From NCBI GenBank assembly GCA_963807965.1, contig CAWEDU010000017.1:207452-271451 (forward strand): 64,000 nt of DNA. The letters are read 5' to 3'. The notes beneath the pieces are model-generated. The model worked only from the letters and a program-made list of their open reading frames with translations, did not search any database and was not told where the DNA came from. Numbering within the stretch: position 1 is the stretch's first letter; each line of letters begins with the position of its first letter. The DNA is from an uncultured Thermoplasmatales archaeon. Its GTDB lineage: Archaea; Thermoplasmatota; Penumbrarchaeia; Penumbrarchaeales; Penumbrarchaeaceae. The translations under genes were made by a program, and so were the position numbers. Positions 1 through 60,618 of the stretch are shown piece by piece.

Positions 1-3000
1 TGGTCCGAGGTCTTTATGAAGGTATTTCCTATGACGTTAATATCTCCTATAGTGACATTCGAATAACTTGTCAGTGTGGAGGTCGTGTAATTTGTTCTGA
101 TCCCTTTCCCAGAATCGAATCTGTTATTGGTGATGACCAGATCATCAAAGACCACCTGTCCGGATGTCATCCCCTCTCCGATCATATCATGGTCGATGTC
201 CAGTCCGTAATCATGTGCACGAATGTCGTTTCTATCAATGGTCCAGATTCCCATACTCATCATAGTTGATCCATCAATCATATTACCAAATTTATGGTGT
301 GCATTGGACTCTATTGCTGAACCATTGGACCTGATGGAATTGCCACTTATACGGACTCCCTCGAACATTCCCTTGGAGGAATCCCTCGACTTGTGACCGG
401 TATCCTCTATACTTTTCAGGAACACTCCAGCACCTTCGGAAATAATGTCATTTCTCTCAATAGAAATAGTGCCTATTGCAGCATTGGCAGAACCGGTCAA
501 ATAACTGAAAGAGGTATGTAAGCTGTTCAATCCAACTCCTCTATTTCCCGAATCGATGGTATTTCCATCCATGGTAATATTTCCAAAGTACAATTCAGAA
601 TTTCCCGAATTGAAAACCCCAATGGACCATATGTTATCCAGGATCATTCCATCATCTTTGGAATTGACCGAGTTGTTATCCATATGGATGCCGTCAAATC
701 TGACCGTAGAGGCATCCTCCATCCAGATGCCCATTTCGAACACCTCGTTTAGGATGATCCCGGTTGAATTTGTCCTGACGATATTATTGCTCAGCGATAT
801 CGCCCCCATCGTGGAGGAGGAATCTCCGGATAATTGGGATCCCATACTTCCAATCCTCCGTATATGGATTCCTTCGGTTTCTGAGATAATGTCATTTCCA
901 TCGATCATAATATCTTCCATATTGAATGAGGCCCCTTCCATGAGGAAGGATCCAAAGGAGTTCAGAAAGTCAATATGGATACCCTGGTCATCAGATGAAA
1001 TGGAGTTCTTTGAAAGAATTACCGAGCCTCCTTGGAAAGAGGAGTTCTGTTCAAGATAAGACCCGAGTTCGATTATATATCCGAAATAGATTCCGATAAA
1101 TCTTGATTCGATCGAATTACCCATTACACTGATATCTTCCATGAAGAAACTGGCATTATCCATCAAGAAACAACCGAGATCATATACTTGTGAGAAGGAT
1201 ATGCCCGTTTCATTCGATCCAATATCATTATCTTTAATCATTATTGATCCCATGAAAAATGAGGCATCTTCGGAAAGGTAATTCCCCACTGTTGTCAGGC
1301 TGTCAATATAAATGCCGCTGTATTCCGATATTATCTCGTTATTTGAGATCTCTATGTTTTCCATTATAAAAGTTGCAAATCCTCCAATTTCAGTTCCGAT
1401 GTTAGAAATATATTCGATAATGATCCCCTCTTCCGATGCCCAGACGAAGTTTTCCCGAATGTCCAATGTTCCAAATACAAAGGAGGATCGTTCTGACATG
1501 AATACCCCCCAGGTATTGATCTGGTAGATGTTTATCCCCGCGCCTGAGGACCAGATATGGTTCTCAGAGATCACTATATCCATCATTGTCATTGATGATT
1601 TATCTGACATCTGGTAACCGAATTCCTCCAGATGATTGAGGAATATACCATCTCCGTGAGACCAGATCGCATTCTTCTTGATCCCGATCTCTCCGATCTG
1701 AACAGTTGAAGATCCGTGGATACTCCTACCGAATCCTGATAAGGTGTTCAGAGCTATTCCGATACTTTCCGACCAGATATTATTTTCAGATACATTGATC
1801 CCATTCATTGTGAACGATGACCATCCGTATAGTTCACATCCGAATTTCAGGAACTGAGAAAATCGGATCCCCTGGTATGCATGTATGTAGTTCCTAAGGA
1901 TCTTGAAGGTGCCTACCGATACACTTGAGTTATCACTGAGTTGATATCCTGCCTGATTCATATTCATTAAGATTCCATAGGCCGAGGAGTAGGACATATC
2001 GGCCTTCAGGCCATTTCCTGAAATGGTGATATTTCCCATGACGAAACTTGAGTTCTCGTGCATATCGTTGCCCATATTATAACAAGTCATCAATACCGGA
2101 ACCGCCGTACTATTGACAACATTCTTTGTGATAGTAATTTCTCCAATAGAACAAGTGGCATTCCCATATAATCCGGACACCTGGTTCAATTCGACATGGA
2201 TGCCGGTGCTGGAGTTCAGTATCCTGTTATTGATGATCGTTGTGCTCTGGGTGACCACCTTGGCATCGTCCTGGATATCACTCCCTGGTAACTGGAAATA
2301 GACAAAGATGCCCTCATTTTGAACATCGATCGTGTTATCACTGATCGTTAAATTCCCTGAAATGAAGGCTGAGTCATCATAGAAGCGGGTCCAAAGAGCA
2401 TATCCGGGTATGGTAATTCCAGAATCAGAATTGATTGAACTGACAAGATTGCTATGTATGATCAGCTCACCCATTCTTATGCTTGATGATCCATGGAGAT
2501 TGACTATGTCGTAATAATCCACATACAATCCCCTATCTCCAAAATCAGTGATGTTGTTGTTGGAGATTATTAGATCACCCACCGAACCATCCACATTCGT
2601 GAGCGTCTCAAGATCTGAATAGAAATATAGGCCCCTCCCTCCGCCTGACATGTTGTTATTAATTACCTGGAAATCTCCAACATCCAATGTTCCTCCCCCC
2701 ATGGAAAGAACATATAGAGAGAAATAGAAGAGATCACCAGATAATGAAGATGAAGTGAAATCATTCCCGGAAAGGATCACATCTCCTGTCTTGATATTAG
2801 TGCTATTCTCATTATCTGATAAAAGGCCTATATTTACTTCCATGCTGGATGACGTTGACGATCTCAATATGATGTTATCCTGGATCTGGATGCCGCTCGA
2901 TGACCAGGAAGTATGGATGTCATTTATATTGACATCAATAATCAAATCCCTTTGGTTGTCGGAAAAAACATTGTTAGTGATATTATGCCCATAATAGGTT

Positions 3001-3437
3001 GACTGGATAGCAACGTAATAACTCCTGATCATTAGGTCGGTTATTGTAACATTGTCCGCATTTAAAGTGAAGGCAACCGGGTTCATTTCAAGTGGGGGGA
3101 AAAGGGCTGAACCGTTTCCCATTATCCAGATCTCAGAAGTGATCATTACCGTTTCATAATATGTCTTGGGGGTCAGGAGGACGATATCACCATCAGATGC
3201 AGCATCCACTCCCTGCTGTATGGTGGTATAGTTGCCAGGTCCTGATCCACCAACGTAACGGATGGTTCCCGGATAGGAACCAATTTGATGGTCCATCACT
3301 TTGATCTCTGGAATGGTGATCCCTTGCTCATCAACAACAGGCTCTGCTTCGGTATTCAGAGAAAATGGGAGAAAGGATCCCATTGTTAATATCATAAACA
3401 ATAAACAGGCAGTCGCAGCATTTTTTCGAGTGAACAA
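1..3437 (-). CDS. Giant secreted parallel beta-helix (PbH1-repeat) surface protein. The N-terminal ~1145 aa lie in the window; the C-terminus is beyond the window start. A TTG start is inferred with signal peptide FTRKNAATACLLFMILTMGSFLPFSLNTEA.
   Basis: My own translation of the minus strand gives one uninterrupted frame from about 3437 to position 1. It was absent from the ORF track because the stop lies outside the window. Dozens of ~22-25 aa repeats follow the GxxIxxNxIxxNxxGIxL pattern typical of right-handed beta-helix (NosD/pectate-lyase-like) proteins. N-x-S/T sequon density is very high. A stop codon lies upstream of the signal-peptide-like N-terminus. Confidence 0.6.
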   Translation of the reverse strand, partial: MFTRKNAATACLLFMILTMGSFLPFSLNTEAEPVVDEQGITIPEIKVMDHQIGSYPGTIRYVGGSGPGNYTTIQQGVDAASDGDIVLLTPKTYYETVMITSEIWIMGNGSALFPPLEMNPVAFTLNADNVTITDLMIRSYYVAIQSTYYGHNITNNVFSDNQRDLIIDVNINDIHTSWSSSGIQIQDNIILRSSTSSSMEVNIGLLSDNENSTNIKTGDVILSGNDFTSSSLSGDLFYFSLYVLSMGGGTLDVGDFQVINNNMSGGGRGLYFYSDLETLTNVDGSVGDLIISNNNITDFGDRGLYVDYYDIVNLHGSSSIRMGELIIHSNLVSSINSDSGITIPGYALWTRFYDDSAFISGNLTISDNTIDVQNEGIFVYFQLPGSDIQDDAKVVTQSTTIINNRILNSSTGIHVELNQVSGLYGNATCSIGEITITKNVVNSTAVPVLMTCYNMGNDMHENSSFVMGNITISGNGLKADMSYSSAYGILMNMNQAGYQLSDNSSVSVGTFKILRNYIHAYQGIRFSQFLKFGCELYGWSSFTMNGINVSENNIWSESIGIALNTLSGFGRSIHGSSTVQIGEIGIKKNAIWSHGDGIFLNHLEEFGYQMSDKSSMTMMDIVISENHIWSSGAGINIYQINTWGVFMSERSSFVFGTLDIRENFVWASEEGIIIEYISNIGTEIGGFATFIMENIEISNNEIISEYSGIYIDSLTTVGNYLSEDASFFMGSIMIKDNDIGSNETGISFSQVYDLGCFLMDNASFFMEDISVMGNSIESRFIGIYFGYIIELGSYLEQNSSFQGGSVILSKNSISSDDQGIHIDFLNSFGSFLMEGASFNMEDIMIDGNDIISETEGIHIRRIGSMGSQLSGDSSSTMGAISLSNNIVRTNSTGIILNEVFEMGIWMEDASTVRFDGIHMDNNSVNSKDDGMILDNIWSIGVFNSGNSELYFGNITMDGNTIDSGNRGVGLNSLHTSFSYLTGSANAAIGTISIERNDIISEGAGVFLKSIEDTGHKSRDSSKGMFEGVRISGNSIRSNGSAIESNAHHKFGNMIDGSTMMSMGIWTIDRNDIRAHDYGLDIDHDMIGEGMTSGQVVFDDLVITNNRFDSGKGIRTNYTTSTLTSYSNVTIGDINVIGNTFIKTSD

Positions 3438-3554
3438 ACATAACCCCCCAGAATCGATCCCTACGTATTCAAGATACCTGGTCTTTTAAAAGGTTGTTCT
3501 TTTAATCTATATTATCTCAAACCCAGATCGATCCCTCCATTTACTCCTTTTTCA

Positions 3555-5860
3555 ATGAACGTTAGGGTCAAATATGGGGAACTGGATAACCAGACGGGAA
3601 AGATGAGGACCGATGCGGTAATACTGACGGTCCTGCTTCTGGCAGGACCCTTTTGGATCCTATTCGATCAGGGAGAGGGAATCCCTTCTCAGTTCGATGA
3701 AGATAAGGACCTCGGTATCTACATGGAAGAGGACCTTCCCATGGTGAGGTCCTCTGTTTCAGGGAACCTCACTGACCATGATCCGATAGTAATCAACAAT
3801 GAGACCGATCTTGAGGACCTCATGTTCAAAGAGAGCTGGCCCGGTAATGGGACAGAGGAGGATCCATACATAATTGAGGACCTTGAGATAGATGCCGAGG
3901 GAGAGAGTATGGCCATTTTCATGGGGAATACAAGTTCTTACATTCAATTCATTAACTGTGATATTTCAAATACCTCCTCAACTCATTCATTCAATATTGC
4001 CATATTCTTATGGAATGTATCGAATGTATCAATTGAATCATGCTTTATTCATAACAGCGAATATGGGGTCATGATAAGGGAGGCCCACTACCTGTATCTT
4101 AACAACATCAATTTCTCGGATTGTGATATTGGTTTTGGTAGTGGTTATTCGAAACCAGTATCAAGAATAACTGTTGACAATTGCACTTTCAGTCCTTCGA
4201 TATATGATGCAATTGAGATCGATACGGGTTCCTTCCTTTCAGTGGTTAACAGTTCCTTCACTTCAACCGGGAATGCTATTGATTTCAGAGTCTGTGATAA
4301 TATTACACTGTCTGGAAACGAATTCGATGATTGTGAAAATGCTATAAGGATCTCGTAGATAGTAAAGAAATTGATATTAGGAAGATACAAACATCATTAA
4401 TGACTCTTTCCAGAGCAATTTATCTTTCCAACGGTGAACATATCACCATTTCAAATATATCTTTCAGAAACAATCGCGGTGTGGATATTGATATCCGGCA
4501 ATCCAGTAATATTAAACTCTTAAACATAACTGGGCTAAATAGTTATAATGGGTGTTATATCTGGCTTGCCGGCATAATTAATTGCATATTTGATGGATTT
4601 TATGTCAATGTTCCAGTTTTGGTCTTTTTATTGAGGGTTCCATTAATGTAGTTTTCCAGAATTGGGATATCCAAACCTCTCCATACAATACATTAGGAGA
4701 TGTCCTCAGTATTTCCGGTTCAAATCATATAATGATAAGGAACTGCACAATACAAACACATTCCGAAAGAACTCTATTCATGAGTCTATCTTCGGATATT
4801 CAAGTTTTCAATGGCATTCATTTCACAACAGTCATGGCACAGTTGTTGAAATGCAAAGATCATATGATAACGAGTTTTTCGAAAATTCATTTGATCAGAG
4901 CGATTATGACCCGGATTATAATGATTATCATACCATAGTCGTTGGATACAACTCTAATAATAACTTATTTTTTAACAATACTCTAATCGGTTCTGGATTC
5001 ATATTTGTTATAATGAATAAAGATGATTACCGTGAACTAATTGACCAGACAATTGCGCAAAACAATACACTGAACGGGAAATCGGTTTACTATTTTACCG
5101 GACAAGACTTCATCATTTCGACATTCCTGATGGGAATCAATATTTCTTCGTGAATTGCTCCAATCTTAACAATTAAAGGATTGGGATTTCCATAACAGCA
5201 CTGATTTTTTATTGGTTCGATCTGGAAATGTAAGAATTGAGAATTGCAGTTTCTATACAAATAATTCTAATATTCCCTCATTCCTAATTGTTGAATGCAA
5301 CAATGTAACTGTTAAAGAATCAAAAATATAGTCTGTTAGTTCTGATTCGATTGTTCAGAAGATCCGAGGACGTAATATTGACAGGAAACACCTTTGAAAG
5401 ATATGTGAAAATCGAGGATTCAAATAATATCTCCATTCTGGAAATAACCATTACTTAGAACATAGACCAACATTTGAAAATCTACAAATAGTCACAATTA
5501 GGAATAATTACTTCTCTCAAGGTTTGTATATTGAGGTATCTGGAAGAAGTTAATATTATGGGAAATGAGATTCCTATTTTCAGAGGATTACGATTCAATA
5601 TATATTTACGATTCCTCGGATATTGAGATCAAAAATCAGAATTTGAGTTCTGAAAATTCCGGATTGGACTCTTATTCGGCAGATCGAAATCTCAATTATA
5701 GATTCGAATATCGAAATTGCACAATAGGTCTGGAAATCAGATTTTCCAATGATATTGTGGTTGGATAATAATGGATATCGAATTGCGAATGAGGGTAAAT
5801 TCCTGGTAGTAGTCTCAAGAAGGTGTAATTTCAAATAATATTATTATAAGATTGAAAGAA
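3555..5860 (+). pseudogene. Decayed paralog of the beta-helix surface protein. It has an intact N-terminal signal/TM segment (MRTDAVILTVLLLAGPFWILF) but its PbH1 repeats are broken into at least four frames with multiple stops. It may once have been the secreted N-terminal half of the downstream 5862..8129 gene.
   Basis: ORFs 3555..4358, 4400..4651, 4662..5153 and 5565..5768 all translate to beta-helix-like repeats (NxTxSxNxF, GNxI motifs) in different frames. The stretch 5150..5560 shows repeat-like peptides in all three frames, interrupted by TAA/TAG/TGA, and is AT-rich. Confidence 0.45.
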
Positions 5861-5861
5861 T

Positions 5862-8129
5862 ATGCAATTGAATCGAAGAAGGATCGAAAGAATTAATATC
5901 CATTCAAACTGCATTCTTGAGAACAACCAGGCAACCGGGAGTGTGTATGATACAAAAACAGCCCAGATAAAAGAAGAATCAGAGGATAATAATTATTTCT
6001 TGAAGGAAAAGGAAATCACTACTCCGAACACACATCTCCCGATGACGGATTTCGATGGTATAGTGGATGAGGAATATCTATTCCATGGAGTAGGGGAATC
6101 GGATCCTTATCCGCTGGTCAGGACCCCCATGCCAACCTTCGATGCACCCGAAATAATCTCTATCACCCCAGGGTCCTCCTCGGTTGTTCTCGAATGGACC
6201 GAACCTCAGAAAAGGTATGGAGGGGACCTCGATGGATATAAGATATATCAGAAAGAGGGGAAAGGTCCGTTCCAATTGAGGTTCGACATATCAGATACGA
6301 ACATGATGACCATTCGATCCCTTTCAAATGGAGAAGTCTACTCTTATATGGTATCTGCTTACAATGATATGGGAGAAGGTCTACTCTCCGCTCCAGCATC
6401 GACGGTTCCAGATGGTACAGGGCCCGAAATATTCATTCACACTCCCGTTGAAGGGTCCTTCCTCAATGATGAGATCATTGAGCTCCAGTGGTCATGCATC
6501 GATGTTGAAACGGGAGTTTCTCTCATGGAGATATCCGTGGATGGAGGGGAACCCATCGAGATCCCGGTAGGTTATGGTTCCTATGATCTGGAGGGCCTTT
6601 CAGAGGGGGATCACATCGTAAATATCTGGTCAGAGAACTCCATCTCATTATCAACCCAGGTTTCTGTCAATTTTACAGTAGACCGGACCTCTCCATACCT
6701 TCTTTTTGATCATTCCGGTCCATTATATTCCAACCTTGGGTCCTTCCCCATATCTTGGAACGCTTACGATAACCTCTCGGGACTTGATGACGGATTCACC
6801 ATTTTCATGGAGGATAGGGATCCCATTCAAACCGATAGGAGCGACTACGAGATAATTATCCTGGATGAAGGGGAATATTTAGTTCTCATCTCCTTCAAGG
6901 ACCTTGCAGGGAACTATGGTTTGGCGAGTTTGAAGGTCATTCTGGATCAGACCCCTCCTGAGATCACCATCACTCCGGAAACGGAGTCAATTTTAGATAA
7001 AGACAGTATCATCCTGGATTGGGTCTCGGATGGGACCGGAAGTCCGATCAGAACAGTAGAAATATCCATTGATCGGGGAAGGTCCGTAGTCCAATTGGAA
7101 GGTCCTATGGAGTATAAGGACCTTAAAGATGGATCCCATGTGGTCACATTCTACCTTGAGGATAAAGCGGGGAACTCCGCTTCCAAGGATGTCACTATTT
7201 TCATCGATACAATTTCGCCCAGGATCGATTACAAGGTCCCATCCGGAGATAAGGTTCCCCTTGACAGTGATATGGAGATCGTTTTCTCCGAGAATGTTTT
7301 CAAGGTATCGGTAGTGATAAACGGCATCGCTTTCCAGACAATTATTAGCGGGAACAAAGCATACATCACTCCGGTTCCTGCCTGGGAGATCGGGAAAATA
7401 TATTCCATCGATGTTTCAGCAGTGGACCTCGCAGGGAATCCCCTGGAGAATGGATCCTATGAGTTCACAACCGTAGGTCCTGGATCAGTAAGCGGCAGGA
7501 TCATGGATGCTGGAGGCCGTCCTGTTGTTGATGCTGCTATTACCTTAGAGGGAACAGAATACCGGTCAGATGAGGAAGGCAGGTTCTCCTTCACCGGACC
7601 TGAGGGTAACTGGACAATACTGATCAATGCAAAGGGATTCGTGGAGTTCAATACAACCATTTCTCTGGTTCCCGGAAAGGATGCCGATCTGGGGAATGTA
7701 ATACTCTTGAAGAAGGAAGGAGATGGAAAGGATATCTCCGGTATCCTCATCTTTCTTATGATTCTTCTTATATTGATCATTATCTCAGGTTCAATCGTAT
7801 TCTTTGTTCTAAGAAGAAAGAAGAGGGGTCTAGAATACCAGGACATGTCAGCTATGAAAGAGATCATGTCCGGATTTGGAATAAGAAGGTCTCCCAAGGA
7901 GATCAACTGTTATCAGATCCTCGATGTTCCAAGGAATGCCAATGCTTTGGAGATCAAGAAAGCTTATAGAAACCTTGCAGGGATCTATCATCCGGATAAG
8001 AATGCCCATGGAAATACAGATGTGGAATTCGATGAGAAGATAAGGGAGATCAATACTGCAAAGACAATACTACTGGACCCGGAAAAGAGAGAGGTCCACG
8101 ACAGGATGCTGAACCATTTCGAAGACTGA
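5862..8129 (+). CDS. Single-pass membrane protein: FN3 domain, about four Ig-like (Big-type, DxAGN motif) domains, a carboxypeptidase-regulatory-like beta-sandwich, a TM helix, and a cytoplasmic C-terminal DnaJ J-domain.
   Basis: The 755-aa ORF contains an FN3-like block (PEIISITPGSSSVVLEWTEP..YSYMVSAYNDMGEG) and repeated TSP/TPP..DxAGN modules. GSVSGRIMDAGGRPVVDAAITLEG..GRFSF matches the CarboxypepD_reg/prealbumin fold. The hydrophobic stretch ISGILIFLMILLILIIISGSIVFFVL is followed by RRKKRG. The C-terminal 70 aa, INCYQILDVPRNANALEIKKAYRNLAGIYHPDKN...REINTAKTILLDPEKREVHDRML, match the J-domain consensus including HPD. There is no N-terminal signal peptide; a TGA stop lies 9 nt upstream of the ATG. 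Confidence 0.8.
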   Translation: MQLNRRRIERINIHSNCILENNQATGSVYDTKTAQIKEESEDNNYFLKEKEITTPNTHLPMTDFDGIVDEEYLFHGVGESDPYPLVRTPMPTFDAPEIISITPGSSSVVLEWTEPQKRYGGDLDGYKIYQKEGKGPFQLRFDISDTNMMTIRSLSNGEVYSYMVSAYNDMGEGLLSAPASTVPDGTGPEIFIHTPVEGSFLNDEIIELQWSCIDVETGVSLMEISVDGGEPIEIPVGYGSYDLEGLSEGDHIVNIWSENSISLSTQVSVNFTVDRTSPYLLFDHSGPLYSNLGSFPISWNAYDNLSGLDDGFTIFMEDRDPIQTDRSDYEIIILDEGEYLVLISFKDLAGNYGLASLKVILDQTPPEITITPETESILDKDSIILDWVSDGTGSPIRTVEISIDRGRSVVQLEGPMEYKDLKDGSHVVTFYLEDKAGNSASKDVTIFIDTISPRIDYKVPSGDKVPLDSDMEIVFSENVFKVSVVINGIAFQTIISGNKAYITPVPAWEIGKIYSIDVSAVDLAGNPLENGSYEFTTVGPGSVSGRIMDAGGRPVVDAAITLEGTEYRSDEEGRFSFTGPEGNWTILINAKGFVEFNTTISLVPGKDADLGNVILLKKEGDGKDISGILIFLMILLILIIISGSIVFFVLRRKKRGLEYQDMSAMKEIMSGFGIRRSPKEINCYQILDVPRNANALEIKKAYRNLAGIYHPDKNAHGNTDVEFDEKIREINTAKTILLDPEKREVHDRMLNHFED

Positions 8130-8169: not shown

Positions 8170-9438
8170 TTAGTCCTCTCCATGGTTCAATTTCGCTATT
8201 ACTGCAAGGGCCAGTATGATCGCAATCATACCTGCTGCAAGAAGGATCAATATTATCAAGACTGTTCTTGTATTGTCCTTTTCCTTATCCTTTTCATTAT
8301 TACCTTCATCATCAGTGGTATCATCATCGGTTGTGGTATCGTCATCGTCTACAGGTGTGGGTTCCTCTATCTTCTCTGTCTTGAACTTGATCTGGATATC
8401 ATCTTTTATCTCCCTTCCCCAGATGTCCTTTGCTTCCTTTGAGATCTTCACCTTGTATTCTGTATCGGACCCCATTTCCTCATCCGGGATGAAGGAGAAA
8501 CTCCTCTCCATCCACCTGAAGGTCCCGTTGATCTCGGGTAGGATCGAGAACGCTTCTTCGACAGAAGCTCGGTCCATATCAGAGTTGAATGTGACATTTA
8601 TCATGATGGACCGAGGATGTCTTCCTCCGTCTGGAGTGGCCTCGGTCACCTCAGGAGGTGGAAGTACCCACTCGAATAGGTCCTGGATGTCATCATCTTC
8701 CATGACAGTGTCCATTATCAGAAGCTCATCAATGGTTCCGTTGAAGGCCTGGTCAGCATCGAAGCCTCCTCCGACCTCGTCTTGATCATTGCCAATTACA
8801 AAGGTACCTCCCCCCCTGATCGGATTCTCTACCGCAAGAATTCCGGAGAATTCCTCCTTGGCATCTTTGTATACTCTAAGGTCCCCATCAAGCACTCTCC
8901 ATGTCAACACGATATTGTGCCATTTTCCGTCATTGAAAGAGATATCCGTATCCCTTGTCAATCCTCTGATATGGACCTTCAGGTCCCCTGGATCTTCAAG
9001 CATGAACTCGTTTGTCTCGTAGATGTTCGCATATGAAATTGGGACCCTCCCTTCAATTGTCCAGGAAGTATTGATCCAGAAAGAGATGGTCATCTCGGAG
9101 GAGGGAAGGTCGAAATTCCTTACCATTGCCACATCATCATCCCCATCGAAATGGAGAGCTTCACCCTCGATGCCTTCGGTCCATTCAGGGTCCTCTTCCT
9201 CATCCGATGAAGAAGTCCCGAGGACCATTATCCTCCCTCCTGCCAGGTTAGTGCTGTTCTCGCCTTCTCCTTCGTCAAATGTCCAGTATCCAATAATGTC
9301 CTCATCATCGCCTGGAAGGTCCGAAAGGTCCTTGCCGGAGGCGAAGATGAATGTCAGCATGATCACAAGCGAGATCAGCTGGATCGAAAAGATCTTCAAC
9401 ATCCTTCTTCCCCGTTCCGCTCCTGTGCGGTATATCAA
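8170..9438 (-). CDS. Secreted/membrane-anchored LamG (concanavalin-A-like lectin) domain protein with an SbsA-like Ig domain, an acidic D/T-rich linker and a C-terminal TM anchor.
   Basis: Signal peptide MLKIFSIQLISLVIMLTFIFASG. The LamG_3-like block is GYWTFDEG...ALHFDGDDDVAMV...MTISFWIN...DGKWHNIVLTW...DGDLRVYKD...FNGTIDELLIMD. An Ig-like block begins ATPDGGRHPRSIMINVTFNSDM. The linker reads DDDDTTTDDDTTDDEG, followed by the TM segment TVLIILILLAAGMIAIILALAVIA. Confidence 0.8.
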   Translation of the reverse strand: MIYRTGAERGRRMLKIFSIQLISLVIMLTFIFASGKDLSDLPGDDEDIIGYWTFDEGEGENSTNLAGGRIMVLGTSSSDEEEDPEWTEGIEGEALHFDGDDDVAMVRNFDLPSSEMTISFWINTSWTIEGRVPISYANIYETNEFMLEDPGDLKVHIRGLTRDTDISFNDGKWHNIVLTWRVLDGDLRVYKDAKEEFSGILAVENPIRGGGTFVIGNDQDEVGGGFDADQAFNGTIDELLIMDTVMEDDDIQDLFEWVLPPPEVTEATPDGGRHPRSIMINVTFNSDMDRASVEEAFSILPEINGTFRWMERSFSFIPDEEMGSDTEYKVKISKEAKDIWGREIKDDIQIKFKTEKIEEPTPVDDDDTTTDDDTTDDEGNNEKDKEKDNTRTVLIILILLAAGMIAIILALAVIAKLNHGED

Positions 9439-10343: not shown

Positions 10344-11186
10344 TTGATCTCAACCTCCCTGGGTTGTCTTTTTAATGAAACCCAAGATGAATTGGGTCCT
10401 GCTCCAGTAATATTCATCTCGGAAACATATCCAAAAGAAGGAGATAAGCTGATTTTCAGATGTGAAGGTTCCTTCGTTGATGGTTCAATCGAAACATACC
10501 AATGGAAGATCTTCAACGATGAAGATGAGGTTATTTTTACGAATGATAGCATTGATTTCTACTTCACATTTAAAGAGGCAGGGAGTTACAGAGCGGAATT
10601 GGTAGTGATAGATGAAAACGGAAGGACTGGAAATGCAACACAATCGATAGTGATCTCTTCCAAATTAACTTCCAAGGAATTCACTTTTGATATCTATCCC
10701 GGGACCTTTACATTCGAGATCAATGAAACCTTTGACAACGGGGATTTCAGATTCAATTATACTGGCTATATGATCAATGGAATATGGAACCCTGAGATCA
10801 GGATCACCCATATTATTATGAATAAAACCCTTGGAATATTTTGGAATTTTACAAAAGGATCCATGAATGCGGGATGGGGTTTCAGGTCAACAATTATTGT
10901 CCTTACCTCTGATTATGTGATGGTAGAGATCGAAGATATTGACCATACGAATTTTTTCGGTTATGGGATTTTTTACCAATTGAAAAACAACTCTACATTT
11001 GGTTTCCAATGTGGTCATACAATAAAATGGATAGCATATTTCCAGGAGAATGATACGGCCGAATTGGAGATTATAAAAGATGATCTCTCTTCCATCATGT
11101 ATGTGGAAAGGGTGAAAAATACGGTTGTTGGAACAATAACCATACGTGTGAAAAGTAAGGATATCATCATGTTCTTTCCACAGTAG
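10344..11186 (+). CDS. Secreted PKD-domain protein with a lipoprotein-like N-terminus; many N-glycosylation sequons.
   Basis: A PKD-like block (IFRCEGSFVDGSIETYQWKIFND..FTFKEAGSYRAELVVIDENGRTGNAT) is present. The upstream in-frame sequence KSIKVLFIIILISTSLGCLF is signal-like but has no ATG, so the true start may be a non-ATG codon near 10296-10340. Confidence 0.6.
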   Translation: MISTSLGCLFNETQDELGPAPVIFISETYPKEGDKLIFRCEGSFVDGSIETYQWKIFNDEDEVIFTNDSIDFYFTFKEAGSYRAELVVIDENGRTGNATQSIVISSKLTSKEFTFDIYPGTFTFEINETFDNGDFRFNYTGYMINGIWNPEIRITHIIMNKTLGIFWNFTKGSMNAGWGFRSTIIVLTSDYVMVEIEDIDHTNFFGYGIFYQLKNNSTFGFQCGHTIKWIAYFQENDTAELEIIKDDLSSIMYVERVKNTVVGTITIRVKSKDIIMFFPQ

Positions 11187-40804: not shown

Positions 40805-43800
40805 TTGATTGATATGAGTGCGTTGATAACAAAGACGTTTTGCCTTTGGGTGGCGATCTTTCTGGCCTTTCTGGCCGGAATGACCCCCTCAGGTACGGCG
40901 TCAACGGGAGCAGGTCCCTGGACCGAAGAAAAGGTCCTTGAGGAGGGACTTGACCAGGAACCTGCTCCCAGAAACATGTCACGGGGGGACCTTCTTCTTG
41001 CAGAAAGTGAGGAGGTTACCATCCATGGTAATCTGACCTACCGGAGGGCATTGTTGGGGAAGGATTCCATTCTGAACCTTGAAGATTGTAATCTTACCCT
41101 AATAGGGGACGGGAATGAGATACCCTCAATAACCGGTCACCCTTCCACTCTTGCACTCATCAATTCAAGCATAATCCTATCAGGAATGGATGGATCCTCA
41201 AAGATAAGGAGCGCTGGTTCCAATGTCTCATTTGATCTGAATGTCACATCATCCTTCGAAATGCTCAATTCCTCCATCTATCTCAGAGGAGGTGAAGGAT
41301 GGACTAAAAGTGATCCTGGAGCTCCGTTTTCGACTTCGCTTTCAGGTTTCGAATTTTCGGGAGGCAATTCAAGCTTCACTCTCCTTGGTGAAATTTCAAC
41401 CAACATAACAATAGTGGATTCCTCAATAGAGTTGTACGGAGGTTATGGAGGAGATGCTGCCGACGGAGAGGACCTGGATTCCGATGATTTCCATCTGTCC
41501 GGTGGTTATACCACCGGTGCAAATCTATCAGGTAAGGTGGGTTCCGGAGGGGGAGTCTCCATGTCATTCAATGCCCCGGGAGCTGTCATGTACCTCTCGA
41601 ATTCCAGTTTCTGGCTTGAGGGTGGATGGGGAGGGATGGCTGGCAATGCAGGGGGTGTTGTCTGGGATGGGGAAAAGACATACACCCATCCCACGACTTC
41701 AGGAGGATACTCCTCGGGAGGATGGAGCGAAGGAGAACCCTTTGATCCGGGGACTGTTAGCGGTGATGTAGGGTCTGGCGGTCATACTTCACTGGAGATC
41801 CTTGTTGATGATCTAACAATGATGGGATGTCGCCTGTCCCTTGGTTCAGGTGGAGGGGGAAGATCCGGAGAAGGGGGATATTGCATCTCTGATGTGACCG
41901 GAAACCCCGGGACAGCTACCAATACCCTGGGAGGTGGAGGAGGGGGCAGTTATGCAGGAGGATATGGTGGTTATCAGATGATCATTGAGTGGGACGGAGG
42001 GGATGGTGGTAAGATCATGGACCGTGTCGCCAGAGGTGGTGATTCCGAGGTAATGATAAACTGTACCAGATGCATCTGGATGGAGGATAATTTCATTGGA
42101 TGCGCGGGTGGTTCAGTATGGAACCCGAACAGAGGAGGTGCAGGGGGTGGTGATTTGTCATTGGTTATTGATGGAGGTGGTGGAGGAGGATCCGGATATT
42201 CTGGTGGAGGCGGTGCTTCCGCAGAAATGCTTTGTACAATTCAATGAAAGGAGGATCTCCTGGCTGGATCGGCCCTGATGTTGGAGATGCCGGTGATTAC
42301 AAGGTCAAACTTACAGCTCCAATGGTAATGGCCAGGGGGAGAACTGAGAAATATCTCTACGGCGGGATCTCGACCGGTACCTCAGATGTAAACGGGAAGA
42401 GCGGTGAGGTGTCCGCCATGACAGAATATCAGGGGGGAGAAGGAGGAACCGGTTTGGAAAAGGGAAAAAGGGATGGAAGTGGAACATACAGAGGTCCTCT
42501 ACCCGCACCATTTCCGATCTATCCGTTGGATGGTGAGATCATCACGGATCTTTCCGAACCATTCGAATGGTGCCCCCTGGATACAGGCTATTATCCTGCT
42601 TCAGGAAATGAGTTCACCTTCAGATTGACAGGATCTTTGAATATCAATGATGTTATCCAGGAGTTCAATGTAACATCGCTTTCAACTTCCCTGATGGATG
42701 AGATCGAGGATGGTCACTATTACTGGACTATCAAACCCCACAAGGGAAATGCAGTAACCACCTGGATGAAACCCCAGCTTTTCACAGTCGACCGTACAGC
42801 TCCGGTAGTTCTTTCAGGTCCGGTATTTCCATGGGTTCCCTCCTCGGATCCGGTTTGTAATGTGAGATACATCGAGAACTTGACAGGTCTGGATCCGGAT
42901 TCGGTAATGGTAAGGTACGGTCCCCTTGAGGGGCCATTCGGGGAATGGTTCTCAGCAAATACCATTGAAGAAGGAAATGGAATTCATTCCGTTGAGGTGG
43001 TCCTCCCCTCAGAAGAGAGCAATTATACCTTCTATGTCAAAGCTTCGGACTGGGCAGGAAACGGTCCTATCCTTGCAGGTCCTTATTTCATCGGAGTTGA
43101 CGGATCACCTCCTTTGATAGAGGACCTTACACCTTCTGGCTGGACCAATACTTCATTCCATCTCTCTTTCAGATCCTCGGACCGTTTATCAGGTCTTTCC
43201 CGTAACTTCACATTGAATATTCAAGGTCCTTTTGGAAGCACCATCAAAGATATCCTTCCAGAGGAATATGAGGGGGGCCTTTTCAGAACCATTGGGTCTT
43301 TTCAACTTGAAGAAGGTAACTATACCTTCGAGCTTGTCACAAAAGATGCTGTCGATAACCTCGGAACATCCGGACCGCTTTCGGTCCTTGTTGATGGGAG
43401 CTGTCCGATATTGATGGCTTACACTCCAGCTGATGGGGCTATATTCAACGATCCCTTACCGGCACCCTTGATCAAGGTTGTGGATAGATTGAGCGGTCCT
43501 CTGATGATGGAGTATCATCTGGAAGGGCCTTCAGGAATATTCGATCTGAGGTACTTCGATCTGCTTGATACCGTTGACGTGAACATAGGCCAGCCTCTTT
43601 CCGAGGGGAATTACACCTGGTATGCGAATGCATCTGACCAGGTTGGGAACAGAATGTCCGCAGGTCCTTTCCATTTCATGGTGGATATGACACCGCCGAT
43701 CGTCGAGGTTTTAGGAATCGAAGAAGAAAACACCATTATGATCCACAGTAATGATATTCTCACCGGATTGGAAGAGGCCGAGGTCAGATGCGAGATACCG

Positions 43801-45279
43801 GGAAAGAACGGATGGATAGAGGTCTGGAAGGAGACCATGGACCTCATTCCGGGACCTCCACAAAGTGACTATTCATTGAATATTGAACATACCATTCCTG
43901 GACCAGTCTGCTACCTGTCAGTCAAAGGTACGGACCAAGCGCAGAATATTGGTGATTGGTCCTCCCGGACCAGGATAAACGGACCCGGTTCTGAACTGAA
44001 CATTTATATTGAGATCCCAAGTGTGGTCGGAGCAAATCCGCTGTTAGAGGTCAAGATGGACCTGCCTCTGGGGGTGGACATCTCATCAGTTTCCATGAAG
44101 CTCGAACCCGGCCTTGGTACCATAGCGGTCCTTAAACCAAGATCATTGGAGGTCCTGACCAATTCAACTCCGATCCAGGGATCCGATCTCCTGGTCCCAT
44201 CGAGGGTCAAAGCAGCATTTCAGGTCCCGTTCGATGAAGGTGTATTCGAGGCCTGGATAACATTCAGGGATGGATTGCCACTTCCGGTCGAGAGGATATG
44301 GGGTCCTCATTCCCTTACAGTTGACGGGGAATCACCTCTCATCGATCTGGAGGCAGACCCCTTCTATACAGAGGTCCCCGCAAGGGTGACCTTCGATGCA
44401 AGCGATAAGACATCCGATATATCCATGATGGAGATCTCTGTTGGCGGGGGGGAATTCGGACCTTTCGATCTGCCAGGAGCTCCGTCACTGCATCTAAATG
44501 AAGCTGGGAGTTCATGGATCATGGTGAATTTCTCGTACGGACCCGAAACCGAAATAATTGTAAGGGTCCTCGATGAAGCAGGAAATATGGCAGAAGGATC
44601 GGTGACCACCAGGGCAACGAGACCTCCTTTCGTGAGCATCGAGAGGTCATATACAGGAACAGTAGTTTCCGGAGAGGAATTTCAGCTCACTGCGGACTGC
44701 CAGGACCCTGAGGGTGATATCCTTTCATTTTCATGGTATGTGGATGATGTCCCTGCAGGTACAGGAGAGGTCCTCTCCCTGGTCCTTGAGAACGGGACCC
44801 ACCGGATCGTCCTGAACTGTTCAGATGGAGACCTTTTCGTCCAGAAAGAGATGATGATCATTGCAGAAGGACCTGCAATTGAATTGGAGGAGAAACAGGG
44901 TTCACAGGAGAAGGGTCCTGCTTTTCTCCTAGTTGCAGGTATGATCGTTTCCATTCTTGTCATGGCTATGATCTCAGTGATCCTGGTCCTCTGGAGGAGA
45001 GGGGATAGATCTGATGGCGATGAAGAGGATGAGGAAGTTTGGGGTGATGGGGACTCGGTCAAGACAGGGAGGACCGGTGAAGGTCTTCAAGATGACATCA
45101 GTAAATCGAACGGGGAAGATATCGGTATCCACTGTGATATCTGCCTGAGAAGGTTATCAGGAAGCTCCAGGACCGTGAAATGTAGATGCGGAGCACAATT
45201 CCACAGAGCCTGCGCTTCCAGGGAAGGGGAATGTCCCGAATGCGGAAGGGAGATAATGCTCCCATCCGATGGCATATAG
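40805..45279 (+). CDS. Giant (~1490 aa) single-pass surface protein: signal peptide, beta-helix-like NxS/T-rich region, Gly-rich region, multiple Ig-like (DxAGN) domains, a PKD-like domain, a TM helix, and a cytoplasmic C4HC3 zinc-finger-like tail. One frameshift lies near 42235-42247.
   Basis: Signal peptide MSALITKTFCLWVAIFLAFLAGMTP. GG(Y/S)GG-rich region from 41400 to 42450. The second ORF starts at TTG with an open upstream frame, so it is treated as a continuation. Repeated TxP..DxxGN modules. The TM segment AFLLVAGMIVSILVMAMISVILVLW is followed by RRGDR. The tail reads HCDICLRRLSGSSRTVKCRCGAQFHRACASREGECPECG. Confidence 0.7.
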
Positions 45280-53169: not shown

Positions 53170-54647
<1,478 letters not shown>

Positions 54648-55011: not shown

Positions 55012-56025
55012 TCACCTACCTTTTATAATAATCACTATCATCGCTATAATCAGAATTGCTATGATTATCAATGAAACAAGGATGAGGATCAATATGATCC
55101 TCTCACCACTTTTTTCAACCTCATAGCCGTTCCTTTCAGGGTCCTCGGGATAGTTATCCAGTTTCAACCCGGTCCTGGAATCATCCATGTCCCTTCCATC
55201 GTTCCAGCGGTTGGGATATCCGTCTCCATCGATATCGACACTTGCGGCCCAGTCATCGGGAAACGCATCCAAAGAATCCTCGACATTATCGTAATCTCTA
55301 TCATTAAAATATATATATTTTTCAAGGATCTCGATCTTTCGAGAGATTTTTTCCGTCTCGAAATCACCATCACTGACCCACATTGAAACACTCTTGAATC
55401 CTTTCTTTGAATATGTGTGGGTAACGTTCATGCCAGTAGTGGTGGCTCCATCACCGAAGTCCCAGAAGTAGGTCAATCTATCATCATCAGGGTCCTTTAC
55501 ACTGGAAACGGAGAACTCGATCTCGTCACCCTCATATAGATCCGTGGACGGATCGGGGTAAATGTAGAATCTATCAGGTTTTTCCGGAGGGCTGTTTTCA
55601 ACTGTAACAATGATCACCAGTTGAACATCATCGATCCTTGTCGAGTTCTCCACTCTCAAGGTGAGATTGCAGATTCCCCAGGTATCCTCCCACACCTCAA
55701 CAGATGCTATCCACCGGTCCTCTATTCTGAGTATATTCAGGTTGAAGAAATCCATCTTAATGAAGGACTGCCATCCATTGATGTATTCATTGAAGATCAT
55801 GATAGAATAGATTTTGCCGATACTTCCGTTGAACATTCCCTTCGGTCCTGTTAAATAGAATTCAATTTCTCCATCCCTGTCCCGGATCAACGGAGGACCT
55901 TCCCAGTCGGAACTGATCGAAATTCTATTCTCGGTAGACTCCTCAGTTCCTTCCGAACCTCCTGTGAAAATTATTGAGATCGATCCAATATTAAGAAGTA
56001 CCGAGATTGCGATTTCTCCTCTCAT
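55012..56025 (-). CDS. Secreted PKD-domain protein with a C-terminal TM anchor.
   Basis: PKD block TYFWDFGDGATTTGMNVTHTYSKKGFKSVSMWVSDGD. C-terminal hydrophobic segment IILILILVSLIIIAILIIAMIVIII. Confidence 0.75.
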   Translation of the reverse strand: MRGEIAISVLLNIGSISIIFTGGSEGTEESTENRISISSDWEGPPLIRDRDGEIEFYLTGPKGMFNGSIGKIYSIMIFNEYINGWQSFIKMDFFNLNILRIEDRWIASVEVWEDTWGICNLTLRVENSTRIDDVQLVIIVTVENSPPEKPDRFYIYPDPSTDLYEGDEIEFSVSSVKDPDDDRLTYFWDFGDGATTTGMNVTHTYSKKGFKSVSMWVSDGDFETEKISRKIEILEKYIYFNDRDYDNVEDSLDAFPDDWAASVDIDGDGYPNRWNDGRDMDDSRTGLKLDNYPEDPERNGYEVEKSGERIILILILVSLIIIAILIIAMIVIIIKGR

Positions 56026-59505: not shown

Positions 59506-60618
59506 TCAGAACCCGGTATCGAAATCCCAATCAAGGTCCCACCTTTTCAGATCGTCCTCCAGGACCTTTTCCTCCCCTATATCGCCGGGACTCCCAAATT
59601 CAATGGCCCGGAGCCTTCCTTTGAGCACTGCCCTTTCATATCTGGAAGGTCCCCTCAAAGGACTCATTGACCAGAGTCTCCTGGGAGGGTCCTTCATTTC
59701 CTCGCTATCATCCCCTGATCCGATCTTCCTTATCAAGCCAAGTGATAAGACTATCAATATCAGGAGGATCAGGATGATCACAATGAAAAATGGGATTTTC
59801 GACCCATTATCACTTTCAGATTTCTTAGGCTGAGTGGTCGCGTTATCTGTCGACCCATTGATATCAGCCTTTGTTTCCTCCACTGGAAGCACCTCGAGGA
59901 CCGACGTCCTCCTGTCTGTCAGGTTCCCATCATCGACAATAAGCGTGATCGTATGTGTGCCGGGTTGGGAAATTGTTGTGATGAGGACCTTACCTGTACC
60001 CTCTGTTACGCTATCCAGTTCCCATGTGATCTCAAGATAATCCATGTCAGGATCCGAGATCATGCCTGCTGAGATGGATACTTCCTCACCCACTCTGATC
60101 TTTCCTGATGGGATCAATATTGGGTCCTTTATATTTGGTCGATCGTTAATATCGATCAAAGAGATGGTCACTGTTTCTAGGTCCTGGGTCCCATTATAAA
60201 TACATAGGAATGCGAGGGTAATCGTAACATTATCCATCATGCTCTTGCCATCATGCCAGATCATCTGATCGTCAAGGGTAATATTCAACTCCAGGCCCCA
60301 GTCGTTCCTGATGAACTGGTTTTCCCCGAAGTATTGTGTAACAAAGGGTAGCTGATCCGAGATCGGAGGTATTCCCTTCACCCATGCATTCGAATTTGTG
60401 ACAATTGTTACGTCTTCCATTCGAAGAGTATTATTCAGCAGGACCCGGAGATCCAAGTTGTCATATTGATAGTATACTTGCTGATAGTCGTTCACAGAGA
60501 TCAGGTCCTGTTCAATTGTGGATGGAATGTCCTCCCCTGAAAGATTATAAGGGACGAAATTCAATAAGATTAAGATCGAAGCTATCAAACCAATTCCAAT
60601 GTTCATCGATCTCTTCAT
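59506..60618 (-). CDS. Membrane-anchored protein with an extracellular PKD/Ig-like domain and a cytoplasmic tail.
   Basis: Signal peptide MKRSMNIGIGLIASILILLNFVP. LEITWELDSVTEGTGKVLITTISQPGTHTITLIVDDGNLTD. TM segment IPFFIVIILILLILIVLSLGLI. Confidence 0.6.
   Translation of the reverse strand: MKRSMNIGIGLIASILILLNFVPYNLSGEDIPSTIEQDLISVNDYQQVYYQYDNLDLRVLLNNTLRMEDVTIVTNSNAWVKGIPPISDQLPFVTQYFGENQFIRNDWGLELNITLDDQMIWHDGKSMMDNVTITLAFLCIYNGTQDLETVTISLIDINDRPNIKDPILIPSGKIRVGEEVSISAGMISDPDMDYLEITWELDSVTEGTGKVLITTISQPGTHTITLIVDDGNLTDRRTSVLEVLPVEETKADINGSTDNATTQPKKSESDNGSKIPFFIVIILILLILIVLSLGLIRKIGSGDDSEEMKDPPRRLWSMSPLRGPSRYERAVLKGRLRAIEFGSPGDIGEEKVLEDDLKRWDLDWDFDTGF

Follow-up and report, generated by a model that had tools for sequence, protein, structure and literature searches.

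Our favored reading, which we consider reasonably probable, is that the minus strand of positions 1–3437 of the window (the whole 64,000-nucleotide stretch of DNA analyzed here) encodes the distal 60% of a 1898-aa, type-I anchored rod of a Thermoplasmatota archaeon with a spacer or envelope role. As judged from its sequence, the protein likely serves as a rigid spike or adhesin of the envelope and is probably glycosylated. The kind of protein is ordinary and its format, with wide coils of 37 residues, uncommon; it does not represent a novel type of system.

The reading frame at the window edge is a real gene

Direct translation of positions 1–3437 on the minus strand yields 1145 codons with zero stops. 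This part, the N-terminal and membrane-distal 60% of the protein, is identical to the public full-length protein P0001, which comprises 1898 aa counted from the TTG codon and from which the remaining 753 aa beyond window position 1 are known. The TTG start codon lies at 3437–3435, with an in-frame stop 17 codons upstream, and is common to an ortholog of 69% identity (locus L001; 1898-aa ORF). Comparison with this ortholog gave a dN/dS of 0.23 with zero indels, and a dN/dS of 0.22 for the first 31 codons alone. The gene is real, as shown by the stop-free frame, the identical full-length protein in public data, and the dN/dS and lack of indels in the ortholog comparison. A preliminary description of this DNA had proposed a continuous frame of more than 1140 codons from a TTG start and had named stops seen on re-reading as a refutation; the frame and start were borne out and no stop was found in the 1145 codons. 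Its account of the missing entry in the ORF list as an edge artifact also holds, as the list has no minus-strand entry here and leaves out ORFs that run off an end.

The features assigned to the gene and its upstream region are as follows.

3..3437, minus strand: coding sequence, residues 1–1145 of the 1898-aa protein; stop-free, 100% identical to P0001
3345..3437, minus strand: TTG start and signal peptide, aa 1–31, MFTRKNAATACLLFMILTMGSFLPFSLNTEA, with the mature protein beginning at EP; start and peptide conserved in L001
2373..3275, minus strand: predicted membrane-distal head, aa 55–355, combining a NosD-like N-terminal cap (VGGSGPGNYTTIQQGVDAASDGDIV..TYYE) with the first coils; from hhalign, the conservation profile and the model
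1821..2372, minus strand: wide beta-helix coils of 35–41 aa with small compensating indels, aa 356–539
156..1820, minus strand: fifteen coils in exact 37-aa register, aa 540–1094; from autocorrelation, the unit table, DSSP and pLDDT of 95–98
3..155, minus strand: last window-encoded coils, aa 1095–1145
3444..3449, minus strand: GGGGGG, putative Shine-Dalgarno-like element 6 nt ahead of the TTG; from sequence, identical in L001
3484..3491, minus strand: TTTTAAAA, putative TATA-box-like element; kept in the L001 intergenic region

The TATA-box-like TTTTAAAA sits within a conserved CTTTTAAAAG, approximately 50 nt upstream of the start. Public gene calls place the start at the first ATG, 14 codons further on, and thus truncate the signal peptide.

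Predicted secretion and membrane topology

The N-terminus follows the n/h/c scheme typical of signal peptides, with a hydrophobic core scoring 1.87 on the Kyte-Doolittle scale, in line with the classical signal peptide recognized earlier; the alignment of more distant orthologs begins at residue 5. Over its full length, the protein begins with the signal peptide and a beta-helix of ~1240 aa, followed by an Ig-like stalk, a TM helix and an acidic tail. The helix runs on to approximately aa 1240, outside the window, and the part beyond the window further comprises a short run of narrower coils, 5–6 Ig-like domains and a CarboxypepD_reg-like domain. A single TM helix (aa 1849–1867; Kyte-Doolittle 3.51) is followed by a highly acidic cytoplasmic tail of 29 aa, 20 of them acidic, and the ectodomain is likewise very acidic (D+E 229 vs K+R 86). 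No PGF-CTERM signal was found in the full-length protein, and neither a TPS domain nor a C-terminal beta-barrel translocator is present, the C-terminus consisting of Ig-like domains and the one TM helix. Based on the plain C-terminal TM helix and acidic cytoplasmic tail, the full-length protein is predicted to be an integral type-I membrane protein. Together with the archaeal 16S rRNA carried by the window, the signal peptide and the 1898-aa length with a TM anchor agree with the original proposal of a giant secreted archaeal surface protein, which may, as also proposed there, be associated with an S-layer or glycocalyx.

A 37-residue repeat predicted to form wide beta-helix coils

BLOSUM autocorrelation of the protein peaks only at 37, 74 and 111 aa. 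The register is exactly 37 aa in approximately 15 units (aa 540–1094), and some 27 coils measure 33–41 aa, with the head coils becoming wider from about aa 160. The repeat length of 22–25 aa given in the preliminary description therefore has to be replaced by a period of 37 aa, as autocorrelation has no peak at 22–25, whereas the PbH1-like motifs it listed are present in the form I-x-I-x-x-N-x-I-x-S-x-x-x-G-I-x-I. The consensus of the unit is [SA]-S-F-x-M-G-x-I-x-I-s-x-N-x-I-x-S-x-x-x-G-I-x-[IL]-n-x-[IL]-x-x-phi-G-x-phi-L-s-g-x. Mapping DSSP from the predicted model onto this register suggests five strands per coil (positions 2–5, 8–11, 14–17, 22–30 and 33–34); in each coil a beta-structured stretch of ~15 residues interrupts the PbH1 core motif, which would account for the five strands. 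Asn13 forms a stacked Asn ladder in the turn that precedes the final core strand, being found in 15/15 units with a conservation of 0.93 among orthologs. We also considered two coils per 37-aa unit and rejected this arrangement, since each strand type occurs once per unit and lag 18–19 gives no genuine autocorrelation. DNA-level tandem repeats are absent from the array, which argues that it is old rather than the product of recent expansion or an assembly artifact.

The AlphaFold2 model (pLDDT 91.4, pTM 0.86) is all-beta, with strands recurring at strictly regular intervals, albeit built on 8 sequences only and with the coil geometry taken from the DSSP string, and AlphaFold is prone to predicting beta-solenoids for repeats (10.64898/2025.12.04.691947). 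The predicted fold superimposes on solved right-handed beta-helices. At the level of sequence profiles, hhalign against canonical NosD/PbH1 proteins, using as target an alignment of proteins with strong NosD/Beta_helix hits, gave a probability of 99.3% (E = 1.9e-20; 30% identity over aa 50–318), and several relatives with the 36/37-aa period carry Pfam NosD/Beta_helix hits. Family HMMs were blank: searching the 1145 aa with Pfam (PF13229, PF05048) and NCBIfam gave no beta-helix family match even at E ≤ 1, and the single match of any kind to the window protein, YARHG at E = 0.2, is noise. The beta-helix HMM hit named beforehand as a check, whose lack was to count against the fold, is thus missing in Pfam and NCBIfam. 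Family HMMs likewise had no match to the helix part of P0001–P0006, Pfam had none to the array in any of the scanned orthologs, Foldseek against the PDB returned zero matches at E ≤ 0.001, and phmmer against PDB sequences zero at E ≤ 1. AlphaFold2 and hhalign nevertheless favor the parallel beta-helix body of the preliminary description, with its 22–25-aa coil exchanged for one of 37 aa and five strands.

Relationship to known beta-helix proteins

The protein is arguably a sub-variant of the known beta-helix kind. With the NosD/PbH1 ('CASH') proteins (PF05048, PF13229; 7o0y) it has in common an N-terminal cap motif, VGGSGPGNYTTIQ...DGD.V...G.Y.E.V, as well as the Asn ladder and the motif G-I-x-I ... 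I-x-I-x-x-N-x-I. It differs from them in its coils (37 aa and five strands, compared to 22–23 aa and three strands), in the extent of the beta-helix (~1240 aa, compared to 402 residues for the solved NosD chain 7o0y_A), and in its fusion to an Ig-like stalk and TM anchor. NosD proper, a periplasmic protein of N2O-reductase maturation, has ~400–450 aa as opposed to the 1898 aa here, and a nosZ/nosF/nosY context was not found, the neighbors being surface-protein genes.

Bacterial beta-helical adhesins (PfbA 3zpp/4mr0, EtpA 8vba, pertactin 1dab, Fap2 9qe7) have another coil type, and phmmer against PDB sequences detected no sequence similarity to them. They rely on a sortase LPXTG anchor or on type V/TPS secretion, whereas anchoring in the archaeal host would proceed through a Sec signal peptide and C-terminal TM helix. 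Phage tailspikes and depolymerases (cyanophage Pam1 tailspike 7eea; K1/K64) are only 12–14% identical to the window protein. Tailspikes are trimers that act as enzymes or bind receptors, and their coils are irregular, unlike the regular 37-aa sequence repeat encoded by this chromosomal, syntenic gene. Among membrane-anchored archaeal surface glycoproteins, the haloarchaeal S-layer glycoprotein csg and the Thermoplasma major membrane glycoprotein resemble it in type-I topology, acidic ectodomain, N-x-S/T sequons and membrane-near Ig-like domains; they are not known to be beta-helix rods, while the window protein is a predicted beta-helix rod without PGF-CTERM signal.

Conservation suggests a scaffold role, with rival readings less likely

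Conservation is highest in the head, where nearly all of the invariant polar residues are located (H151, D164, D208, D219, D298, D307, Y309 and D354). In the array, core positions are conserved at 0.47 compared to 0.19 for surface positions, the invariant polar residues are structural Ser/Thr only, and coil number is kept without indels at 38–40% identity. From this pattern, and because no catalytic family matched in Pfam or NCBIfam, the array appears to be a scaffold rather than an enzyme.

We weighed this against a carbohydrate-active enzyme (a polysaccharide lyase, a hydrolase or an epimerase) anchored at the surface, with its catalytic groove in the head and the array as spacer, which we judge unlikely. 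The invariant head residues cluster and could form a catalytic site, the best structural neighbors are mostly enzymes (tailspike depolymerases, alpha-1,3-glucanase, AlgE4, RbmB, PL6 lyases), and the EX4484-6 lineage is described as heterotrophic and polymer-degrading (PMC12220078). The enzyme structures, however, share just 9–16% identity with the protein, and most invariant columns are Gly or Asn, that is, structural. Head and array match no Pfam or NCBIfam family, hence none of the CAZyme type, and lack any signature or HMM match of the PL1/3/6/9, GH28, GH87 and AlgE/AlgG beta-helix enzymes; the sequence-level link found by hhalign leads instead to NosD-like non-CAZyme proteins.

Were the rods to make lateral contacts, the protein might be the main S-layer protein of the archaeon, arranged in a two-dimensional lattice. 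A signal peptide with a C-terminal membrane anchor (a TM helix, no PGF motif), an excess of acidic residues, conserved sequons, and a single conserved ortholog with constant coil number and synteny are all compatible with this proposal. We find it doubtful, as conserved lattice contacts are at odds with the poorly conserved array surface, Pfam and NCBIfam find no known S-layer domain, and the term 'S-layer' does not occur in the lineage paper (PMC12220078). A virus-derived tailspike-like or otherwise mobile gene, as opposed to a host envelope gene, is very improbable: viral matches are generic (TM 0.1–0.4), synteny on the chromosome is kept from 69% down to 27% ortholog identity, the GC content is similar to that of the rest of the window, and the protein carries a signal peptide, Ig-like stalk and TM anchor.

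In the favored spacer or envelope reading, ~31 coils at ~4.8 Å each would form a rigid rod of ~15 nm, which the Ig-like stalk would hold away from the membrane. The rod itself would serve as a structural spacer or envelope element, and the conserved distal head would be the likeliest ligand contact, probably for glycan or matrix.

N-glycosylation sequons

The 1145 aa contain 24 N-x-S/T sequons, or 1 per 48 aa, so that the density of one every 15–20 residues stated in the preliminary description was overstated 2.5–3-fold. When set against background, as had been suggested, the 2.1 sequons per 100 aa are ~3 times the window ORF background (0.75), but not above what composition predicts: composition-preserving shuffles gave 19.1 ± 3.8 sequons, with a fraction of 0.13 reaching the observed count, so the N/S/T-rich composition accounts for the number in the helix. 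Similar or higher densities occur in several further secreted proteins that the window encodes. Beyond the window edge, the Ig-like region exceeds its compositional expectation (10 sequons vs 4.7 ± 2.0; fraction 0.01). Orthologs keep the sequon position in 64% of cells, as opposed to an expected 28% and to 42% when the mirror motif is scored; 9/24 are kept in all four orthologs scored, and retained sites show S/T swaps and variable middle residues. Archaeal orthologs have 21–26 sequons each, and a bacterial relative has 4. Some conserved sequons, NYT 69 and NVT 129, double as structural motifs of PbH1 proteins from bacteria. Collectively, the pattern of retention suggests that N-glycans are probably attached to a conserved subset of the 24 sequons.

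Host lineage, gene neighborhood and wider family

The host is an archaeon of the lineage EX4484-6, also called 'Ca. Penumbrarchaeia', within the Thermoplasmatota. A genome scan with this single protein identified one genome locus, with a Thermoplasmatota EX4484-6 MAG as the closest genome match; close homologs all come from Thermoplasmatota MAGs, and other named homologs from Thermoplasmatota/Thermoplasmata MAGs. The orthologs (27–69% identity) have in common a gene cluster in which they are flanked on either side by another giant surface protein, the region past the window edge being inferred from the ortholog loci. One is a convergent DUF7948/SBBP (beta-propeller)/fn3 protein conserved in L001–L005, and the other a divergent, canonical beta-helix/fn3/DnaJ (J-domain) protein conserved in L001–L003. 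Most likely, the window protein would act together with these two flanking giants.

Members of the ortholog cluster are called 'hypothetical protein' or 'Ig-like domain-containing', and their beta-helix part has no name, because standard HMMs miss the 1240-aa helix. Wide-coil relatives form at least 120 clusters (50% identity, E ≤ 1e-10) with members of up to 4830 aa. We entertain, as a tentative and rather unlikely extension, that the 36/37-residue, five-strand wide-coil helix defines a distinct, largely Thermoplasmatota-centered family which, with the two syntenic giants, makes up the principal 'Ca. Penumbrarchaeia' envelope; the envelope may then consist of membrane-anchored rods and not of a conventional S-layer.

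While no new mechanism is revealed, these data correct an annotation gap, namely the unnamed beta-helix part of the ortholog cluster and the signal peptide clipped in public calls. The clean 37-aa signature could seed a repeat or domain model for more than 100 giant archaeal surface proteins, and the conserved cluster of three giant genes provides a starting point on the envelope make-up of an uncultured sediment lineage.

Reading frame, start codon and domain order

Translation of the reverse complement of window positions 1-3437 gives 1145 codons with no stop. The ORF listing has no minus-strand entry there and states that off-end ORFs are omitted, so the preliminary description was right to treat the missing entry as an edge artefact. 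The gene opens with TTG (3437-3435), preceded by an in-frame stop 17 codons before. This start is supported because the same TTG opens the 1898-aa ORF of the ortholog at 69% identity (P0002), alignments of more distant orthologs begin at residue 5, and dN/dS is 0.22 over the first 31 codons.

Elements preceding the TTG, conserved at the ortholog locus
3449-3444, minus strand: GGGGGG
3491-3484, minus strand: TATA-like TTTTAAAA

Public gene calls for P0002 and for P0001, a full-length copy on a 353-kb contig, begin at the first ATG, 13-14 codons past the conserved TTG (window 3395-3437, minus strand), and thereby lose the charged n-region of the signal peptide. P0001 (1884 aa as annotated, 1898 aa counted from TTG) is 100% identical to the window-encoded part. 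Its helix extends to about aa 1240, followed by Ig-like domains (Big_13, Big_3_3 and others), a CarboxypepD_reg-like domain, a single strong TM helix (aa 1849-1867; mean hydropathy 3.51) and a C-terminal tail of 29 aa, 20 of them acidic. The ectodomain, too, is strongly acidic (D+E 229 vs K+R 86). From a domain order ending in a TM helix and acidic tail, the product is predicted to be a type-I membrane-anchored surface protein, the window-encoded part forming its membrane-distal end.

A 37-residue repeat

BLOSUM autocorrelation of the 1145 aa gave a clear signal only at 37, 74 and 111 aa, strongest from residue 480 onward, with no period at the 22-25 aa initially proposed. Laid out in 37-aa rows, the sequence stays in phase between about aa 281 and aa 1094, and exactly so across the 15 units of aa 540-1094 (the array). 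The unit consensus is [SA]-S-F-x-M-G-x-I-x-I-s-x-N-x-I-x-S-x-x-x-G-I-x-[IL]-n-x-[IL]-x-x-phi-G-x-phi-L-s-g-x, with Asn13 conserved in 15/15, Gly21 in 14/15 and Gly31 in 13/15 units. No DNA-level tandem repeat was found in the array, which is therefore ancient.

Four consecutive coils carry Trp at unit position 16 (W555, W592, W629 and W666; aa 555-666, window 1440-1775, minus strand), and orthologs at 40% identity keep W or Y there in two or three of the four. If position 16 faces outward, as its alternation with conserved Ile15 and Ser17 suggests, the series may form a ladder of exposed aromatic residues, possibly a stripe that binds ligand.

Fold and coil geometry

Pfam and NCBIfam scans detected no beta-helix family in the 1145 aa, nor in the helix region of orthologs P0001-P0006. 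Comparison of the family with canonical archaeal NosD/PbH1 proteins by hhalign gave a probability of 99.3% (E 1.9e-20, aa 50-318), with long gaps on the canonical side from about aa 160, indicating that the coils studied here carry insertions. The AlphaFold2 model, built from a shallow 8-sequence family alignment, is all-beta and strictly periodic (mean pLDDT 91.4, pTM 0.86), with the caveat that AlphaFold readily predicts solenoids for repeats (10.64898/2025.12.04.691947). DSSP on this predicted model places strands at unit positions 2-5, 8-11, 14-17, 22-30 and 33-34, and Asn13 in the turn separating the second and third.

In our reading of the sequence and DSSP string, each unit would be a single coil, its PbH1 core (G-I-x-I ... 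I-x-I-x-x-N-x-I-x-S) interrupted by about 15 inserted residues that would stretch one strand to nine residues and add return strands. Beta-solenoids lie towards the short end of the 5-40 residue range of solenoid repeats (PMC3851330), which makes a regular beta coil of 37 aa an extreme case. Good superposition of the model on a 645-residue tailspike domain implies that wide coils are structurally not unprecedented. The preliminary description had made its assignment depend on a beta-helix HMM hit, and the empty scans, taken literally, go against it; membership in the superfamily holds by homology and fold but not by HMM detection or coil length, and the protein is classed with a known superfamily, in an unusual, regular wide-coil format.

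Conservation and sequons

Against P0003, P0005 and P0006, conservation in the array is 0.47 at core and 0.19 at other positions. The most conserved stretch is aa 60-135, and invariant polar residues are almost confined to aa 30-354 (H151, D164, D208, D219, D298, D307, Y309, D354); those of the array are structural Ser/Thr only. Because the coils remain colinear one for one in orthologs of 38-40% identity, and the 69% ortholog has zero indels, the pattern fits a rigid spacer of fixed length with a functional distal head (aa 55-355).

The 1145 aa contain 24 sequons, about one in every 48 aa, a count reached by a fraction of 0.13 of composition-preserving shuffles (19.1 +/- 3.8), and the very high sequon density originally described is not borne out. 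Density is 2.1 per 100 aa vs 0.75 in the window's other ORFs, and other secreted proteins there reach 2.5-4.5. Of the ortholog cells, 64% keep the sequon position (expected 28%, mirror motif 42%), as at site 890 (NST/NLT/NET/NGT/NST/NRT), and archaeal orthologs carry 21-26 sequons each vs 4 in a bacterial relative. This is suggestive of real N-glycosylation, although some of the conserved sites double as structural PbH1 motifs.

Gene neighbourhood

In each of the ortholog loci L001-L005 (L001 carries the 69% ortholog) the directly adjoining, convergent gene encodes a DUF7948/SBBP beta-propeller/fn3 protein (about 1460-1490 aa), and in L001-L003 the divergent neighbour encodes a canonical beta-helix/fn3/CarboxypepD_reg/DnaJ protein (1529-1572 aa). 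Farther out lie a 450-aa protein without assignment, a MamF_MmsF protein and an ABC-2 transporter. Given this conserved order, the surface-protein cluster appears vertically inherited, not mobile.

In the window, the divergent neighbour (3534-8126, plus strand) is a decayed copy of that gene, which also encodes Ig domains: tblastn recovers the N-terminal 276 aa at 50% identity and the C-terminal 845 aa at 74% identity, with 35 stops between 4356 and 5853 and 31-38% GC across 3900-5900. A pseudogene or a fault in the assembly could explain this. In the giant protein of this gene, beta-helix, fn3 and Ig-like N-terminal and middle parts are joined to a C-terminal DnaJ J-domain (E 4e-18).

J-domain fusion protein, kept in three ortholog loci (L001-L003), with coordinates for the window, L001 and L002
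Window 5862-8129, plus strand
L001 5195-9913, minus strand
L002 5241-9830, minus strand

Beta-helix, fn3 and Ig-like domains are usually extracellular, and it is unusual for a surface protein to end in a tail that is presumably cytoplasmic and Hsp70-recruiting. A comparable case is the 1015-aa protein encoded at 42232-45279 (plus strand), which has Ig-like domains and, at its C-terminus, a weak match to the Prok-RING_1 zinc finger; it too is of surface type, with a domain that is putatively cytoplasmic. The window is also rich in putative secreted proteins, most with high sequon density (1.2-3.6 per 100 aa).

Genes for secreted-type proteins with LamG/pentaxin, Big_5 or PKD domains
8170-9438, minus strand
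10344-11186, plus strand
55012-56025, minus strand
59506-60618, minus strand

A clostripain-family (C11) peptidase is encoded at 61288-62871 (plus strand; E 2.6e-38), in agreement with a published account of extracellular C11 peptidases in this lineage's sediment families (PMC12220078).

Proposed function

Overall, the preliminary description was partly confirmed in what it observed and partly supported in its interpretation. We favour, with some reserve, an envelope spike or adhesin that is anchored in the membrane and probably glycosylated. About 31 coils at roughly 4.8 A would form a rod of about 15 nm, carried on the Ig-like stalk, with the conserved head as contact site. A surface-anchored glycan-active enzyme is unlikely: the list of structural neighbours is rich in enzymes and the head has conserved acidic residues, but no Pfam/NCBIfam match, hence no catalytic-family signature, was obtained. 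A true S-layer lattice protein is a slightly weaker candidate still. Viral or mobile origin is highly improbable, as the viral matches are generic and the conserved synteny contradicts it.

Host and family

The closest genome match is a Thermoplasmatota EX4484-6 MAG, of a lineage described as 'Ca. Penumbrarchaeia', rare sediment heterotrophs (PMC12220078); 'S-layer', 'adhesi', 'beta-helix' and 'glycosyl' are absent from that paper, where 'surface' refers to sediments and waters. The window holds a complete archaeal 16S rRNA gene (53170-54647, plus strand; 1334 bits), with no 23S/5S match elsewhere in it, including the 9.3 kb downstream, and no tRNA in the whole 64 kb; the rRNA genes appear unlinked.

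At E <= 1e-3 an exhaustive phmmer search returned 1113 representatives, of which 120 pass <= 1e-10 and 61 pass <= 1e-30, with lengths of up to 4830 aa. Among about 140 relatives no shorter than 300 aa, 36 or 37 is the best period in 102. The members that carry a name come from Thermoplasmatota MAGs ('hypothetical', 'Ig-like domain-containing', 'parallel beta-helix repeat protein'); the one bacterial relative is from an Anaerolineales MAG. Some relatives with the 37-aa period, P0016 (4830 aa), P0020 (3720 aa), P0025 (3282 aa) and P0019 (3176 aa), are two to three times longer and, if single rods, would have far more coils than the protein described here.
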